DNA of 15,946 bases from a virus. Taxonomy: Duplodnaviria; Heunggongvirae; Uroviricota; Caudoviricetes. The DNA lies in the IMG/VR virus record IMGVR_UViG_2645728048_000025; one strand, written 5' to 3'. Positions 6,760 through 15,946 of the stretch are shown one piece after another (the stretch's first letter is position 1; every line of letters starts with the position of its first letter). The notes beneath the pieces were generated by a model. The model had not been told where the DNA came from. It searched no databases and was given only the letters and a program-made list of their open reading frames with translations. The position numbers and the translations under genes were made by a program.

Positions 6760-7038
6760 TCAGGCCTCGAAGAATTCGCCGTTCTTCGGGGCTTTTTCTT
6801 TTGTCAGCATTCTGGCTACTTTCTTAGCCAGTTCCGCCAACTCCTCGTCTTCAACACCCCATTCAAGAACAGCAAGAAGCATTCCCATTTTGGGGATGAA
6901 GCTGTCTTTCCATCGAGAAATTTGCGATTCATTAATCCCTAACGCGTCGGCAACCTTTCGCTGACCACGTACAGCAATTCGATTCAGGATGTTGCTTGTA
7001 ATTGCATTCGCTTTCTTGCGAGTACTTGTAAGTTCCAT
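6760..7038 (-). CDS. cII: CII transcriptional activator (lambda cII / P22 c1 homologue, 92 aa)
   Basis: From the internal ATG (MELTSTRKKANAITSNILNRIAVRGQRKVADALGINESQISRWKDSFIPKMGMLLAVLEWGV...); the ESQISRWK ... MLLAVLEWGV stretch matches lambda CII as I recall it. Confidence 0.85.
   Translation of the reverse strand: MELTSTRKKANAITSNILNRIAVRGQRKVADALGINESQISRWKDSFIPKMGMLLAVLEWGVEDEELAELAKKVARMLTKEKAPKNGEFFEA
6767..6802 (+). terminator. Plus-strand intrinsic terminator inside the 3' end of cII (antisense), OOP-RNA-like
   Basis: Stem CGAAGAA / TTCTTCG (6768-6774 / 6782-6788) with a 7-nt loop, then GGGC and TTTTTCTTTT. Antisense to the cII 3' end, the position of the OOP terminator in lambda. 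Confidence 0.45.
6992..7005 (+). promoter_or_regulatory. CII-binding motif TTGC-N6-TTGC, candidate PRE -35 region (transcription towards cI)
   Basis: TTGC (6992-6995), ttgtaa, TTGC (7002-7005) on the plus strand within the 5' part of the cII coding region, the arrangement of PRE in lambda. Confidence 0.45.
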
Positions 7039-7096
7039 ATGTAAGTATTTCCTTAACAAATAAGAAGTTATGCGCATCAACTTATGCGCGTTGTAT

Positions 7097-7139
7097 TCCC
7101 GCATTTCGGCGGGAATGAGGACCATGACTGTTAAAGAGC
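7097..7139 (-). promoter_or_regulatory. nutR: boxA GCTCTTTAACA plus boxB hairpin
   Basis: Minus-strand boxA (plus 7129-7139) and boxB TCCCGCCGAAATGCGGGA (plus 7097-7114), immediately downstream of cro; both elements identical to nutL. Confidence 0.7.
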
Positions 7140-7146
7140 GGTGTTG

Positions 7147-7341
7147 CTATTTGTTTTTCTTGTTGCTTGGGAAAGGACGAACTTCCTCTCCAATCACACT
7201 GCCATCAGGCTTTACCGTAACCATGATGTTACGGCCTGCCAGAATGGCCTTGCTGATAGCGCACTGGATTACACCAAAGTCACTGGCTGCTTTAGCCTGT
7301 CCATGGATTTTGGCGTAATCGGCAAGTGTCATTCGAATCAT
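7147..7341 (-). CDS. cro: Cro repressor (64 aa)
   Basis: [62 protein letters not shown], collinear with lambda Cro (C-terminal FPSNKK). ATG at 7341 preceded by GGAGAG. Confidence 0.85.
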
Positions 7342-7370
7342 ATGCACTCTCCGTTATTAACCATGAACAA

Positions 7371-7399
7371 AGAATACTACAGGTATTCAAAGCAATCAA
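7371..7399 (-). promoter_or_regulatory. PR promoter candidate: -35 TTGATT, 17-nt spacer, -10 TATTCT
   Basis: Minus-strand hexamers with 17-nt spacing, overlapped by operator sites 1 and 2; the same -10/operator arrangement recurs at PL. Confidence 0.5.
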
Positions 7400-7436
7400 T
7401 ACTCAGGGTATTTTTAGTTTAAGTACCTTAGCTATT
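7372..7436. promoter_or_regulatory. OR operator triplet, consensus AATAC-N5-GTATT
   Basis: Site 1 GAATACtacagGTATTC (7372-7388, perfect 17-bp dyad); site 2 AATACtcaggGTATT (7398-7412); weaker site 3 AGTACcttagCTATT (7422-7436). Centre spacing about 24-25 bp, between divergent cro and cI. Confidence 0.65.
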
Positions 7437-7447
7437 AGAATTAAGCT
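7413..7447 (+). promoter_or_regulatory. PRM candidate giving a leaderless cI transcript
   Basis: -10-like TAGAAT at 7436-7441 lies 6 nt upstream of the cI ATG with no Shine-Dalgarno; weak -35-like TTTAGT at 7413-7418 abuts operator site 2, as OR2 abuts the PRM -35 in lambda. Confidence 0.4.
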
Positions 7448-8164
7448 ATGGAAAATAAAAAATCACTGACGACAGAACAGCTCGAAGACGCTAAGCGGCT
7501 TAAGGCTTTGTATGAGTCAAAAAAGAAAGAATTGGGAATAACCCAATACTCAATCGCTGATGAACTGGGTATCACCCAAGGAGCGGTAGGGCATTATCTT
7601 AATGGCAGAAACGCGCTAAACGTTGAGGTTGCATCTGGTTTTGCACGATTGTTGCAAGTCTCAATTGCTGATTTTAGCCAGTCAATTGCTGCCAAGGTTG
7701 CAGAACAGGCAGAAAGCCTTAAGAGCGATGCCAACGTAAGGTATGCAGGGGAATACAGAGCAGGAAAGAGGTATCCGGTGTTAAGCAGTATCCAGGCTGG
7801 CTCGTGGTGTGAAGCATGCGAACCATACACCATTAAAGACATAGATGTTTGGCTTGAGTCTGACGCGCATATTCAAGGTAATGCGTTCTGGCTTAAAGTG
7901 GAAGGTGATTCAATGACGGCACCGGTTGGGTTAAGCATTCCAGAGGGAACATTCGTTCTTTTCGATACCGGAAGGGAGGCGATCAACGGCAGCTTGGTCA
8001 TAGCAAAACTTTCTGACTCTAACGAAGCAACATTCAAGAAGCTGATAATCGACGGCGGAAATAAATACCTCAAGGGACTTAATCCTGCATGGCCTCTCGT
8101 GCCAATCAATGGAAACTGCAAGATTATAGGCGTTGCAATTGAGACAAAACTAAGGCTGGTTTGA
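7448..8164 (+). CDS. cI: CI repressor (HTH N-terminal domain plus S24 LexA-like autopeptidase domain)
   Basis: HTH region (ITQYSIADELGITQGAVGHYLNG), putative Ala-Gly cleavage site in YPVLSSIQAGSW, catalytic Ser in EGDSM and Lys in FKKL; collinear with lambda CI. Confidence 0.9.
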   Translation: MENKKSLTTEQLEDAKRLKALYESKKKELGITQYSIADELGITQGAVGHYLNGRNALNVEVASGFARLLQVSIADFSQSIAAKVAEQAESLKSDANVRYAGEYRAGKRYPVLSSIQAGSWCEACEPYTIKDIDVWLESDAHIQGNAFWLKVEGDSMTAPVGLSIPEGTFVLFDTGREAINGSLVIAKLSDSNEATFKKLIIDGGNKYLKGLNPAWPLVPINGNCKIIGVAIETKLRLV

Positions 8165-8181
8165 TCACGCAAGGGGCGATT

Positions 8182-8550
8182 ATGGTTGGAACCGCTATAG
8201 CAAGCTTTTTGGGGATGTTGGCAATCTCAACAATTTACGGCTTAGCGCATGCTTTTATTGCGAAATCTCTATCAGAAAAAATAAGCCAGGCTTGGGCGCA
8301 TAGATCTGCTCGTTTCATGATTCTAGTGGTCATAGCAATACAAGGGATATCTGCATTTATCCTCTATGGATCAAGCTTATACCTGTTGTATCAAGGCGCG
8401 ACATTTACGCCTTACACCAGTGATTACGGAACTCTATACGATGGTAGTGAAGACATCTCTATGGCTTGGATCGTCTTTGGTTTATCTATGGCCGTGTCTG
8501 TTGTAGCAGACATCATTAAGGTAATTCTCGTCTTAACCTTCGCTGACTAA
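8182..8550 (+). CDS. Small integral membrane protein (about 122 aa) immediately downstream of cI; function unknown
   Basis: ATG at 8182 preceded by AAGGGG, 18 nt after the cI stop. Three long hydrophobic segments. Visibly more AT-rich than cI. Occupies the rexAB/sieB-type slot. Confidence 0.6.
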   Translation: MVGTAIASFLGMLAISTIYGLAHAFIAKSLSEKISQAWAHRSARFMILVVIAIQGISAFILYGSSLYLLYQGATFTPYTSDYGTLYDGSEDISMAWIVFGLSMAVSVVADIIKVILVLTFAD

Positions 8551-12916: not shown

Positions 12917-13561
12917 ATGACCACTATTACCAAAGAACGTATCGAATTATTCATTAAAAATCCGCTTGAAAACGGGCTTACCCGTGGCGAACAAATGGAA
13001 CTGGCACGAATTGCACTGGCCTCGCTTGAGGCAGAGCCAGTTGGTGCATTCCACATTGCAGAACAGCAAGTTGACGGTACAAGTGACTACATCAAGGATG
13101 GAGAGTGGCCTATTGATAATGGGATTATTGAAGTCTACGCCGCTCCGCCAGTACCGGTAGTACCTGCTGCATTACCTGAGAACGACGATGAGGACGGGCA
13201 TGACATTGATTATCTTGAGCCATCTGAAGTTTACGCGCTTGGGCGAACAGCTGGATGGAGCGCCTGCCGCGCCGCCATGCTTCAGTCCGGAAACTTTCGG
13301 GAAAACAAGAATTCGTCAACCAATAATTTTCGGGATATTGCGGAAACGTCAACCAACTCTCCGGTAACTCCGGATAGTTGGATAAGCTGTAGTGAGCGAA
13401 TGCCAAACGAAGAAGATGTTTTGGTTTATTGTTCAGACACAAAAGAGCAGATGGTAGGGTTTCACAAAGGTAAAGGGTTATTTCAATTCTTTTACATGAA
13501 CGGTGTTGAGGGGGTATGTGAGCCGTCACACTGGATGCCGCTACCAGAGCCTCCACTTTGA
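12917..13561 (+). CDS. DUF551-like phage protein (214 aa)
   Basis: C-terminal WISCSERMPNEEDVLVYC ... HWMPLPEPP matches the DUF551 pattern common in lambdoid early-left accessory regions (recalled). Confidence 0.6.
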   Translation: MTTITKERIELFIKNPLENGLTRGEQMELARIALASLEAEPVGAFHIAEQQVDGTSDYIKDGEWPIDNGIIEVYAAPPVPVVPAALPENDDEDGHDIDYLEPSEVYALGRTAGWSACRAAMLQSGNFRENKNSSTNNFRDIAETSTNSPVTPDSWISCSERMPNEEDVLVYCSDTKEQMVGFHKGKGLFQFFYMNGVEGVCEPSHWMPLPEPPL

Positions 13562-13657
13562 AAGCGAAGCTTATACATATCTTTTACATCAGCAATCTAT
13601 TGTTAATCTCCAATCAATGTTACGTTGTCATCTCACTCATGCTTTGGAGGTAGTGAT

Positions 13658-13837
13658 ATGTCTTGTCCAAAATGCGGTTCTGGAAATATTGCAAAAGAAA
13701 AAACAATGCGTGGATGGTCTGGAGATTATGTGTGCTGCGATTGCGGATACAACGACTCTAAAGACGCATTTGGAGAGCGTGGTAAAAACGAGTTTGTTAA
13801 AATTAATAAAGAAAGCGAAGGCAACGAAAAAAGCTAA
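13658..13837 (+). CDS. Small zinc-ribbon protein (59 aa)
   Basis: MSCPKCGSGNIAKEK ... YVCCDCGYND with paired CxxC motifs; GGAGG upstream; Lys/Glu-rich tail. Confidence 0.5.
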   Translation: MSCPKCGSGNIAKEKTMRGWSGDYVCCDCGYNDSKDAFGERGKNEFVKINKESEGNEKS

Positions 13838-13902
13838 TTTATTTATTCATATATGAAAACAATGTAACCAATATTCGAATTGAAGAACTGAAAGAACACC
13901 AA

Positions 13903-13926
13903 GCCGCCTGATGGCGGTTTTTTATT
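13903..13926 (+). terminator. Rho-independent terminator closing the plus-strand early-left gene block
   Basis: GCCGCC-tgat-GGCGGT followed by TTTTTTATT. Confidence 0.6.
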
Positions 13927-13933
13927 GCCTGAT

Positions 13934-13949
13934 TTGCAGGTTCGATTCC
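13934..13949 (+). other. tRNA-derived fragment A (T-arm segment TTGCAGGTTCGATTCC); candidate att core
   Basis: 16 nt matching the T-stem/T-loop region of tRNA-Arg (argW) as I recall it; no 5' tRNA portion precedes it. Confidence 0.45.
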
Positions 13950-13968
13950 CTATTCGGAGATAGCACTC

Positions 13969-14169
13969 ATGCAACACGAACTACAACCTGATTCACTGGT
14001 TGATTTGAAATTCATCATGGCCGATACTGGCTTCGGTAAAACCTTCATCTATGACCGGATTAAGTCCGGCGACCTGCCTAAAGCCAAAGTTATCCACGGA
14101 CGAGCAAGATGGTTATATCGTGACCATTGTGAATTCAAAAATAAGCTCTTAAGCCGCGCCAATGGGTAA
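13969..14169 (+). CDS. AlpA/Xis-family small DNA-binding protein (excisionase-like, 66 aa), with no adjacent integrase
   Basis: LVDLKFIMADTGFGKTFIYDRIKSGDLPKAKVIHGRARWLYRD fits the AlpA-type winged-helix pattern; GGAGA upstream of the ATG. Confidence 0.55.
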   Translation: MQHELQPDSLVDLKFIMADTGFGKTFIYDRIKSGDLPKAKVIHGRARWLYRDHCEFKNKLLSRANG

Positions 14170-14242
14170 AATAGCGGGTAAAATATTTCTCATATCTCAA
14201 AAACACCATTCCAATCAATCCCCTGCTGCCTCAAGTAGATGT

Positions 14243-14257
14243 CTGCAGGGGACACCA
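14243..14257 (+). other. tRNA-derived fragment B (3' end CTGCAGGGGACACCA); candidate att copy or host junction
   Basis: Matches the 3'-terminal acceptor/T-stem sequence of argW as recalled, including the terminal CCA; the preceding bases AGATGTC look like a degenerate T-loop. Confidence 0.45.
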
Positions 14258-14645
14258 GATACCCTTCAAACGAAATCTACCTTCACCCCGTAAAAGATGG
14301 GTTTGGCAGCACACTTGCCTTATATCTACTCATTTTTACTGCAACAGGTTGAAATCTCAGCACTGTCAGAAAGCGCTGATGACTAAACAGCCCTGGGCCG
14401 GGCGATGTAACCATCACACAGAATCCTGATAGCGAAATATGGCGTGACTCGATACTTCACTCCGCAATGCATTCCTTGATGAATTCGCAGGACCGTGATA
14501 CACGGGACAGGTCACTGAATGACGACAATGTCCTGGAAATCAGCGAACCGCGCATCTGAAGTACATTTGAGCGACTGTACCAGAACATGAATGAGGCGTT
14601 TGGATTAGGCGATTATTAGCAGGGCTAAGCATTTTACTATTATTA

Positions 14646-14689
14646 TTTTCCGGTTGAGGGATATAGAGCTATCGACAACAACCGGAAAA
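14646..14689. repeat. 11-bp perfect inverted repeat TTTTCCGGTTG / CAACCGGAAAA with a 22-nt spacer, just downstream of the cscB stop
   Basis: Seen directly in the sequence; no U-tract follows the stem on either strand, so it is not a canonical intrinsic terminator. Confidence 0.4.
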
Positions 14690-14698
14690 AGTTTACGT

Positions 14699-15946
14699 CT
14701 ATATTGCTGAAGGTACAGGCGTTTCCATAACTATTTGCTCGCGTTTTTTACTCAAGAAGAAAATGCCAAATAGCAACATCAGGCAGACAATACCCGAAAT
14801 TGCGAAGAAAACTGTCTGGTAGCCTGCGTGGTCAAAGAGTATCCCAGTCGGCGTTGAAAGCAGCACAATCCCAAGCGAACTGGCAATTTGAAAACCAATC
14901 AGAAAGATCGTCGACGACAGGCGCTTATCAAAGTTTGCCACGCTGTATTTGAAGACGGATATGACACAAAGTGGAACCTCAATGGCATGTAACAACTTCA
15001 CTAATGAAATAATCCAGGGGTTAACGAACAGCGCGCAGGAAAGGATACGCAACGCCATAATCACAACTCCGATAAGTAATGCATTTTTTGGCTCTACCCG
15101 ATTCACAAAGAAAGGAATAATCGCCATGCACAGCGCTTCGAGTACCACCTGGAATGAGTTGAGATAACCATACAGGCGCGTTCCTACATCGTGTGATTCG
15201 AATAAACCTGCATAAAAGACAGGAAAAAGTTGTTGATCAAAAATGTTATAGAAAGACCACGTCCCCACAATAAATATGACGAAAACCCAGAAGTTTCGAT
15301 CCTTGAAAACTGCGATAAAATCCTCTTTTTTTACCCCTCCCGCATCTGCCGCTACGCACTGGTGATCCTTATCTTTAAAACGCATGTTGATCATCATAAA
15401 TACAGCGCCAAATAGCGAGACCAACCAGAAGTTGATATGGGGACTGATACTAAAAAATATGCCGGCAAAGAACGCGCCAATAGCATAGCCAAAAGATCCC
15501 CAGGCGCGCGCTGTTCCATATTCGAAATGAAAATTTCGCGCCATTTTTTCGGTGAAGCTATCAAGCAAACCGCATCCCGCCAGATACCCCAAGCCAAAAA
15601 ATAGCGCCCCCAGAATTAGACCTACAGAAAAATTGCTTTGCAGTAACGGTTCATAAACGTAAATCATAAACGGTCCGGTCAAGACCAGGATGAAACTCAT
15701 ACACCAGATGAGCGGTTTCTTCAGACCGAGTTTATCCTGAACGATGCCGTAGAACATCATAAATAGAATGCTGGTAAACTGGTTGACCGAATAAAGTGTA
15801 CCTAATTCCGTCCCTGTCAACCCTAGATGTCCTTTCAGCCAAATAGCGTATAACGACCACCACAGCGACCAGGAAATAAAAAAGAGAAATGAGTAACTGG
15901 ATGCAAAACGATAGTACGCATTTCTGAATGGAATATTCAGTGCCAT
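14699..15946 (-). CDS. cscB: LacY-family (MFS) oligosaccharide:H+ symporter, sucrose permease CscB-like (415 aa, complete)
   Basis: N-terminus MALNIPFRNAYYRFASSYSFLFFISWSLWWSLYAIWL and overall layout match LacY-family permeases, and to my recollection E. coli CscB specifically. The start codon is at the last base of the window. Confidence 0.8.
   Translation of the reverse strand: MALNIPFRNAYYRFASSYSFLFFISWSLWWSLYAIWLKGHLGLTGTELGTLYSVNQFTSILFMMFYGIVQDKLGLKKPLIWCMSFILVLTGPFMIYVYEPLLQSNFSVGLILGALFFGLGYLAGCGLLDSFTEKMARNFHFEYGTARAWGSFGYAIGAFFAGIFFSISPHINFWLVSLFGAVFMMINMRFKDKDHQCVAADAGGVKKEDFIAVFKDRNFWVFVIFIVGTWSFYNIFDQQLFPVFYAGLFESHDVGTRLYGYLNSFQVVLEALCMAIIPFFVNRVEPKNALLIGVVIMALRILSCALFVNPWIISLVKLLHAIEVPLCVISVFKYSVANFDKRLSSTIFLIGFQIASSLGIVLLSTPTGILFDHAGYQTVFFAISGIVCLMLLFGIFFLSKKREQIVMETPVPSAI

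Follow-up and report, generated by a model that had tools for sequence, protein, structure and literature searches.

We focus here on the question of why two short strings of a bacterial tRNA gene lie on either side of a small gene close to the end of a prophage, and on whether either string has a role of its own. Both were noticed in a 15,946-nucleotide stretch of DNA, which we refer to in its full length as the window. The first-pass annotation of the window recognized the two strings (here fragment 1 and fragment 2) as successive segments of the 3′ half of the tRNA-Arg gene argW, separated by about 290 bp with an AlpA/Xis-like gene in between, and took them for an att-site scar, possibly from tandem or successive integrations, in which the integrase had been lost and the gene orphaned. 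The observations themselves largely hold; the history built upon them does not. We show below that the arrangement is that of a well-studied prophage attachment site and that fragment 1, which belongs to the phage, may act as a control element for the neighbouring gene.

As the reference for argW, we used an unoccupied yfdC–argW–cscB locus (L003, 1441–1515, annotated as tRNA-Arg), in which the tRNA sequence is GTCCTCTTAGTTAAATGGATATAACGAGCCCCTCCTAAGGGCTAATTGCAGGTTCGATTCCTGCAGGGGACACCA. Both fragments match it exactly, as consecutive stretches that overlap by a single C (nt 61), and the chance expectation of either match is about 0.02–0.03 in shuffled sequence with two mismatches allowed. Fragment 1 covers the end of the variable loop, the 5′ strand of the T-stem, the T-loop and the first two nucleotides of the T-stem 3′ strand. 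The gap between the fragments is 293 nt and contains a 66-codon open reading frame. The fragments do not amount to a tRNA gene or pseudogene: only 30 of the 75 nt are present, in two pieces, and no cloverleaf was detected. In agreement with the first reading that there is no tRNA 5′ half nearby, ARAGORN found no gene in the window, nor any tRNA near torI in the window and 24 related loci, and Rfam, searched with the window at E ≤ 10, returned merely sub-threshold sRNA and leader matches centred on the terminator and no tRNA. An integrase domain is likewise missing from the ten largest open reading frames of the window, which instead encode domains usual for a lambdoid early region (DnaB, KilAC antirepressor, S24/HTH repressor, Rad52, SSB, NinB, Dam and Ead/Ea22). 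The gene on the right is a LacY-type permease, the sucrose permease that had been placed just beyond the junction.

The identity of the interval follows from alignments to HK620, Sf6, KplE1 and empty sites, taken together with the published core and module. Positions 13560–14257 are 99.0% identical to coliphage HK620, 13864–14257 are 98.5% identical to Shigella phage Sf6 and 13919–14257 are 97% identical to the K-12 cryptic prophage KplE1 (CPS-53). The HK620 alignment runs out at 14257 and the alignment to the empty argW–cscB site sets in at 14243, and the 15-nt overlap of the phage and empty-site homologies is fragment 2, which occurs only once in the 15.9-kb window. From there on, the host flank matches the sequence that follows argW in unoccupied genomes with an intact tRNA, at 100% identity. 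Furthermore, the published core of the KplE1/HK620/Sf6 module is CTGCAGGGGACACCAT (PMC2951348; the module is also described in PMC8787464), and the ‘attP core’ feature in the HK620 GenBank record maps to 14243–14258; attP and attB share 15 nt here versus 16 in K-12, with a G in place of T after CCA. The interval is thus almost certainly the ordinary attR end of a P22-like prophage (Lederbergvirus, HK620/Sf6-type) residing in argW, and the switch of alignment at the core bears out the earlier proposal of an att site in a tRNA-Arg gene at a prophage–host junction. The 3′ end of argW was the target of IntS-type site-specific recombination, in which strand exchange within fragment 2 left phage DNA to the left and the original host sequence to the right. 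The features of the interval are collected in Table 1. A small open reading frame of HK620, hkaB (gene 17 in Sf6), crosses the attP core and corresponds to window positions 14162–14302; in the prophage, its 3′ part is swapped for host sequence, and hkaB can thus be intact only in the excised phage.

Table 1. Features at and around the attR end of the prophage, in window coordinates
Feature	Position	Strand	Basis
eag/hkaD-like small gene, last early-left gene ahead of the recombination module	13659–13838	+	99% nucleotide identity to HK620 hkaD
Intrinsic terminator-like hairpin and T-run, left boundary of the torI module	13901–13925	+	Terminator scan, 8-bp stem
Putative ‘pI’ promoter	13924–13962		HK620 annotation
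TTGC-N5-TTGC, HK620-annotated CII-binding site	13925–13937	+	Annotation transferred via 99% alignment, offset 11559
Fragment 1, TTGCAGGTTCGATTCC, phage DNA equal to argW nt 46–61	13934–13949	+	Exact match, once in the window
Conserved motif CAGGTTCGATTCCC, with pentamer GTTCG at 13940–13944	13937–13950	+	Alignment of relatives
torI/hkaC, recombination directionality factor (excisionase)	13969–14169	+	PDB 1z4h; annotated torI in E. coli genomes
P-arm direct repeats GGGTAAAAT, two copies	14163–14185	+	HK620 ‘attP repeat’, repeat_region 2604–2626
Candidate core architecture	14238–14256	+	Inverted-repeat arms flanking TGCAGGG
Fragment 2, attR core CTGCAGGGGACACCA, equal to argW nt 61–75	14243–14257	+	Homology switch point
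Host intergenic DNA 3′ of argW	14258–14698	.	100% identical to unoccupied argW–cscB loci from the core on
cscB sucrose permease, host gene	14699–15946	-	Pfam LacY_symp, 640 bits; annotated cscB/oligosaccharide MFS transporter

The core region also holds computational hints of where the overlap region and the core-type sites lie. A candidate C arm, GATGTC (14238–14243), and a candidate C′/B′ arm, GACACC (14251–14256), form an inverted repeat around TGCAGGG (14244–14250). In Edwardsiella-type relatives (the attR of L138, L140 and L264), the two arms shift together, reading GGCGTA-TGCAGGG-AACGCC, and this change between the E. coli and Edwardsiella types tracks how the acceptor stem of the target tRNA differs. 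An inverted repeat with arms that vary together would place the overlap region at TGCAGGG. On the phage side, the P-arm direct repeats are probably the arm-type sites of IntS; the pattern TGGGTAAA..CGGGTAAAA is kept 3′ of the gene for the recombination directionality factor (RDF) in nearly all relatives.

The gene between the fragments belongs to this attachment site. Its product matches PDB entry 1z4h, ‘Tor inhibition protein’, over its full length (residues 1–66, E = 6.6e-43), and the open reading frame aligns with hkaC of HK620. TorI is the experimentally characterized RDF of the KplE1 module (PMC2951348, PMC3509656). Of the earlier label, AlpA/Xis-like, the Xis part thus stands and the AlpA part falls away: TorI scores 12.7 bits against Pfam PF05930 (Phage_AlpA), for which the cut-off is 21 (E = 0.12), and 16.9 bits against HTH_17, below the cut-off of 27, and is Xis-like in function while lying outside Pfam AlpA. 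In the published layout of the module, attP is flanked by the RDF gene on one side and the integrase gene on the other, and integration parts the two to opposite ends of the prophage (PMC8787464; PMC2951348); torI therefore occupies its normal place beside attR and is no orphan. On its left, the last early gene is annotated as ‘Eag protein’ in relatives. Two different terminators are found at this point in E. coli torI loci, one per locus, and the same ATTGCCTGATTTGCAGG... follows either of them. The T-run of whichever terminator is present bounds the module on the left, and ATTGCCTGATTTGCAGGTTCGATTCC... constantly accompanies torI. A sub-threshold Rfam match to the sRNA STnc130 on the minus strand (13892–14019; 24.3 bits versus a gathering score of 55, E = 0.46) owes most of its score to the hairpin of the bidirectional terminator and is thus taken as a chance match.

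Where the integrase and the intact tRNA should be sought is illustrated by strain F11 (L230), in which 77% of the window is covered at 97% identity. The order in F11 is yfdC, argW (6850–6924), intS (7086–8243), a P22-like prophage, eag, torI (46363–46563) and cscB, and the integrase and intact tRNA lie about 39.7 kb from attR. They go unseen here because a window of 15.9 kb is too short for this distance, and both the ‘orphan Xis’ and the ‘loss of integrase’ are effects of window size. Since the left end of the prophage falls outside the window, its intS and attL are deduced from relatives; IntS beside attL, and an intact argW at the opposite end, are present in both F11 and strain E94. In E94 (L005, NZ_CP119740.1 1551000–1600000), argW holds a tandem array: the tRNA is followed by an Arm-domain remnant, IS5, a tyrosine recombinase and a P4-like satellite (toprim protein, P2-family capsid, ogr/Delta), and then by MazEF, intS, an HK620-like prophage with an internal deletion, and torI, while its cscB is a pseudogene with an internal stop. 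Degraded and tandem states thus exist but are not indicated for the prophage in the window. In the integrated state, as seen in F11, fragment 1 (46328–46343) and the T-arm of argW (6895–6910) make up a second direct repeat besides that of the core, about 39.4 kb apart; the deletion product to be expected if these copies recombined is absent from 5,426 complete E. coli genomes.

The attR junction is thus already known, and it belongs to the KplE1/HK620/Sf6 argW module on every testable defining feature. KplE1 (CPS-53), HK620, Sf6, CUS-3 and Kapi1 have the same RDF, core, P-arm repeats and target tRNA, at 97–99% nucleotide identity, and likewise have torI at attR and the integrase at the far end. 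The surroundings, on the other hand, differ: the host flank of KplE1 in K-12 is dsdC, whereas that in the window is cscB, of the csc sucrose locus, and the early-region cargo to the left of the module in KplE1/HK620-type relatives is a different mosaic from that in the window. Displaced 3′ fragments of tRNA genes are reportedly found at the attR of tRNA-integrating elements, as in the type associated with Reiter et al. 1989. Fragment 2 fits this type exactly, with the host's original copy moved to the far junction, whereas fragment 1 differs: it stands to the phage side of the junction, and virions carry it in their genome. Some relatives (L128 1771–2020, L136 and L139; compare L001 2700–2860) combine the same TorI, P arm and core with P′ arms and with integrases that share only 31% identity with IntS, the integrase of L128 being a pseudogene. 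This combination indicates that the recombination module is itself mosaic, with a break at or in the core. The tRNA identity ends after TGCAGGGGACA or earlier in L128, L131, L139, L248 and L253 (TGCAGGGG in L139).

Having placed fragment 2, we turn to fragment 1, which does not differ between the window, the free phages HK620 and Sf6, and KplE1 of K-12. Its presence in free phages means that it is phage DNA and no remnant of an integration in the host of the window. All 58 distinct E. coli-type sequences upstream of torI contain it, with scattered single-base variants only. TorI homologues of about 60–88% amino acid identity, from Enterobacter, Citrobacter, Serratia, Pantoea, Edwardsiella and others together with viral contigs, were gathered with divergent single queries; in an alignment scan of viral contigs, every locus returned was of the E. 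coli type, with a TorI 100% identical. Within 65 nt upstream of the gene, the motif GTTCGATT is found for 27 of the 44 distinct TorI-family proteins, in several genera, its first G almost always 28–29 nt ahead of the ATG, and it is absent from the other 17. The motif core reads CAGGTTCGATT(C/T)CC, and GTTCGATTnC is invariant in 17 representative sequences while the flanks vary. Mean pairwise identity across eight lineages is 0.895 for the 14-nt motif, a value inflated by anchoring on the motif, for whose presence these lineages were picked, versus 0.576 at codon position 3, 0.839 at codon positions 1 and 2 and 0.32 in the 40 nt upstream. Judged from these alignments, retention at a fixed position across lineages that are 42% diverged at synonymous sites is not neutral.

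The motif is also found in more than one copy. In the window, a degenerate second copy, ATTCG (13952–13956), adjoins the Shine–Dalgarno sequence GGAG; tandem copies are seen in L233–L235 (CAGGTTCGATTCCCGT-CAGGTTCGATTCCCAT) and in L237 (TGTTCGATTCCCGC-GTTCGATTACCAGC), and L130 has triplicate phased copies at a spacing of 12–13 nt. The opposite state is found in Dryocola sp. (L134, 1440–1503), where TorI is 85% identical to that of the window and the whole motif has been lost, the terminator T-run and ATTGCCTG running directly into the Shine–Dalgarno sequence. This natural deletion is a possible comparison case for experiments.

How did a string of argW come to lie in front of torI, and does its origin account for its conservation? 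A match of 13–16 nt to the phage's own target tRNA is beyond chance, so that descent from the T-arm, or mimicry of it, is real. The reading given at first sight, that the fragments are the scar of tandem or successive argW integrations in the host that cost the integrase and orphaned torI, draws on their being consecutive segments of the tRNA, on a window with neither integrase nor tRNA and on the existence of tandem argW arrays such as the satellite and degraded prophage of E94. It is nevertheless very improbable. The packaged genomes of HK620 and Sf6 contain fragment 1, and with it the whole arrangement, base for base; the integrase is expected some 40 kb away, as in F11; and among 5,426 complete E. 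coli genomes, none shows fragment 1 and torI attached to the 5′ part of the tRNA. In addition, relatives hold a T-loop-like TTCGAT right beside the core as well, and the two pieces are thus not the halves of one split tRNA fragment. In fact, the C arm beside the core reads (G/A)TTCGATGTA in most relatives, which is a second T-loop-like stretch, and the family thus carries two overlapping partial copies of the T-arm rather than one fragment split by torI. A different kind of remnant is conceivable, in which fragment 1 is a functionless, phage-borne relic of an ancestral attP that contained a longer tRNA stretch, from the T-arm to the CCA. The length of the tRNA match speaks for it. So do additional tRNA bases that differ by lineage, the E. 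coli type having TTGCA to the left and the Serratia and Pantoea types CCTG to the right, which suggests that the ancestor contained 18 nt or more of the tRNA. A neutral relic should, however, decay like synonymous sites, and GTTCGATTnC is invariant in 17 sequences against 58% identity at codon position 3; the constant distance to the ATG and the tandem duplication argue in the same direction. Nor is there a phage attP with the contiguous 30-mer TTGCAGG...CACCA among the viral-contig matches listed (at least 120), all of which are full argW genes or are cut by the contig end. We thus consider a functionless relic unlikely; descent from the tRNA as such is compatible with a present-day function.

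Two further readings grant fragment 1 a function of another kind. The HK620 GenBank record annotates a promoter, ‘pI’, and a CII-binding site over it, and fragment 1 would then simply provide the second TTGC repeat and the spacer of a CII-activated promoter, for which the occurrence of a lambda CII family gene in related prophages offers some encouragement. The lambda CII consensus is TTGC-N6-TTGC, straddling the −35 region. The spacing here is N5, the TTGC repeats are gone from most of the motif-bearing relatives and are not conserved outside the E. coli type, and the N6 spacing and conservation with the gene expected of a CII promoter are thus both lacking at this site; a simple sigma-70 scan upstream of torI detected no promoter, and the annotation is a prediction for which experimental support was not found in the literature searched. 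On balance, a CII-activated promoter seems a rather doubtful explanation of fragment 1. The element might alternatively act as RNA, as a T-arm-like hairpin in the torI 5′ leader that serves as a processing or stability signal, and short hairpins can indeed be drawn in the Edwardsiella type (ACAGG-TTCGATTC-CCTGT) and the Serratia type (CAGG-TTCGATT-CCTG). RNAalifold, on the other hand, gives no consensus structure, 54–62% of cells are paired in either T-arm register, which is no better than in shuffled or slid controls, the outer three pairs are open in most sequences, and the E. coli type is limited to three pairs. With folding null and pairing at the level of controls, an RNA hairpin or T-arm mimic was rejected, and a role as RNA is extremely improbable.

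The reading that we prefer is a putative protein-binding element that controls torI, and we regard the case for it as evenly balanced. Fragment 1 is conserved in cis to torI, about 29 nt ahead of the start codon, and its sequence copies the T-arm DNA that flanks the crossover region of attB. If TGCAGGG is the overlap region, the stretch that fragment 1 shares with the tRNA stops precisely where the B arm gives way to it, and fragment 1 may thus be a full copy of the left half-site of attB. TorI would be the likeliest binder, acting through the pentamer GTTCG in an autoregulation of torI, with the core-binding domain of IntS as the alternative; TorI specifically is put forward here as a tentative candidate. 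Five TorI sites in the KplE1 attL (I1–I5) have been defined by mutating GTTCG, GATCG and GTCCG (PMC2951348), and fragment 1 shares the pentamer GTTCG with them. The corresponding sites in the P′ arm of HK620 are CAGTTCGC, CAGTCCGT, CAGTTCGT, TGGTTCGC and CAGATCGT, and the motif of fragment 1 holds GGTTCG, identical to the I4-type site TGGTTCGC. Furthermore, the P′ arms that go with the divergent integrases (31% identical to IntS; L128, L136 and L139) contain CGGTTCGAT(G/A) among arm-type repeats just ahead of the int start, which is the position of the I3–I5 block of KplE1. Tandem phased copies are typical of RDF sites. The shared pentamer, the parallel in the P′ arms and the tandem copies are suggestive of a protein-binding site.

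The resemblance to the attL sites is nonetheless partial. Pentamers of the GTTCG type are common, with 5.6 loose matches per kb in the window, and are a weak feature alone; over the 8-mer, AGGTTCGA agrees with CAGTTCGY of the HK620/KplE1 P′ arm at six of eight positions. The variant CAGTTCGA is found in L254 and L279, and L128, L136 and L139 have GGTTCGAT again close to the start of int. The conservation of fragment 1 also runs on into ATTCC, which is missing from the attL TorI sites. The absence of the motif in 17 of the 44 family members, with the closely related L134 among them, likewise weighs against the binding-site reading. Compared with I1–I5, which lie in attL, fragment 1 is thus a putative site in a different location, upstream of torI, with an extension of its own. 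It is in addition remote from the minimal substrate: a 135-bp attR is sufficient for excision in vitro (PMC3509656), and its left primer, CTCTTAAGCCGCGCCAATGG, maps to 14146–14165. This substrate starts 197 nt to the right of fragment 1, which is thus dispensable for that reaction. On the minus strand within torI codons 3–5 (13976–13983), TAGTTCGT presents the perfect 8-mer pattern of the attL TorI sites in inverted orientation, 38 nt from the upstream motif; it is confined to the E. coli type and dictated by Glu-Leu codons, and as an I-site it is probably a coincidence.

The logic proposed here has parallels. Vis of P4 and Cox/Apl of P2/186 are RDFs that double as transcriptional regulators, and in both cases, as in the putative autoregulation of torI, a binder of the excisionase family would act at promoters of recombination genes. 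TorI itself represses intS (PMC2951348). In the part of the literature searched, we found no functional description of the T-arm-like motif in front of torI, save for the predicted pI/CII annotation. That the motif serves as a working copy of the attB ‘B arm’, bound by TorI and/or IntS and setting the level of excisionase, is a possibility that we advance with some reserve.

For the attachment site itself, the outcome is the rediscovery of one of the best-studied prophage recombination modules in E. coli. For its regulation, the authors of the KplE1 work concluded that control of excision must reside in the expression of the RDF gene, and left this for study (PMC2951348). The motif offers a modest, testable lead on how that expression is controlled. 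If the proposal is correct, it would supply the missing control point for excision in a module in which the transcription of integrase and RDF is uncoupled, and the recombination proteins would read the DNA of a tRNA T-loop at the chromosome and at their own gene alike.
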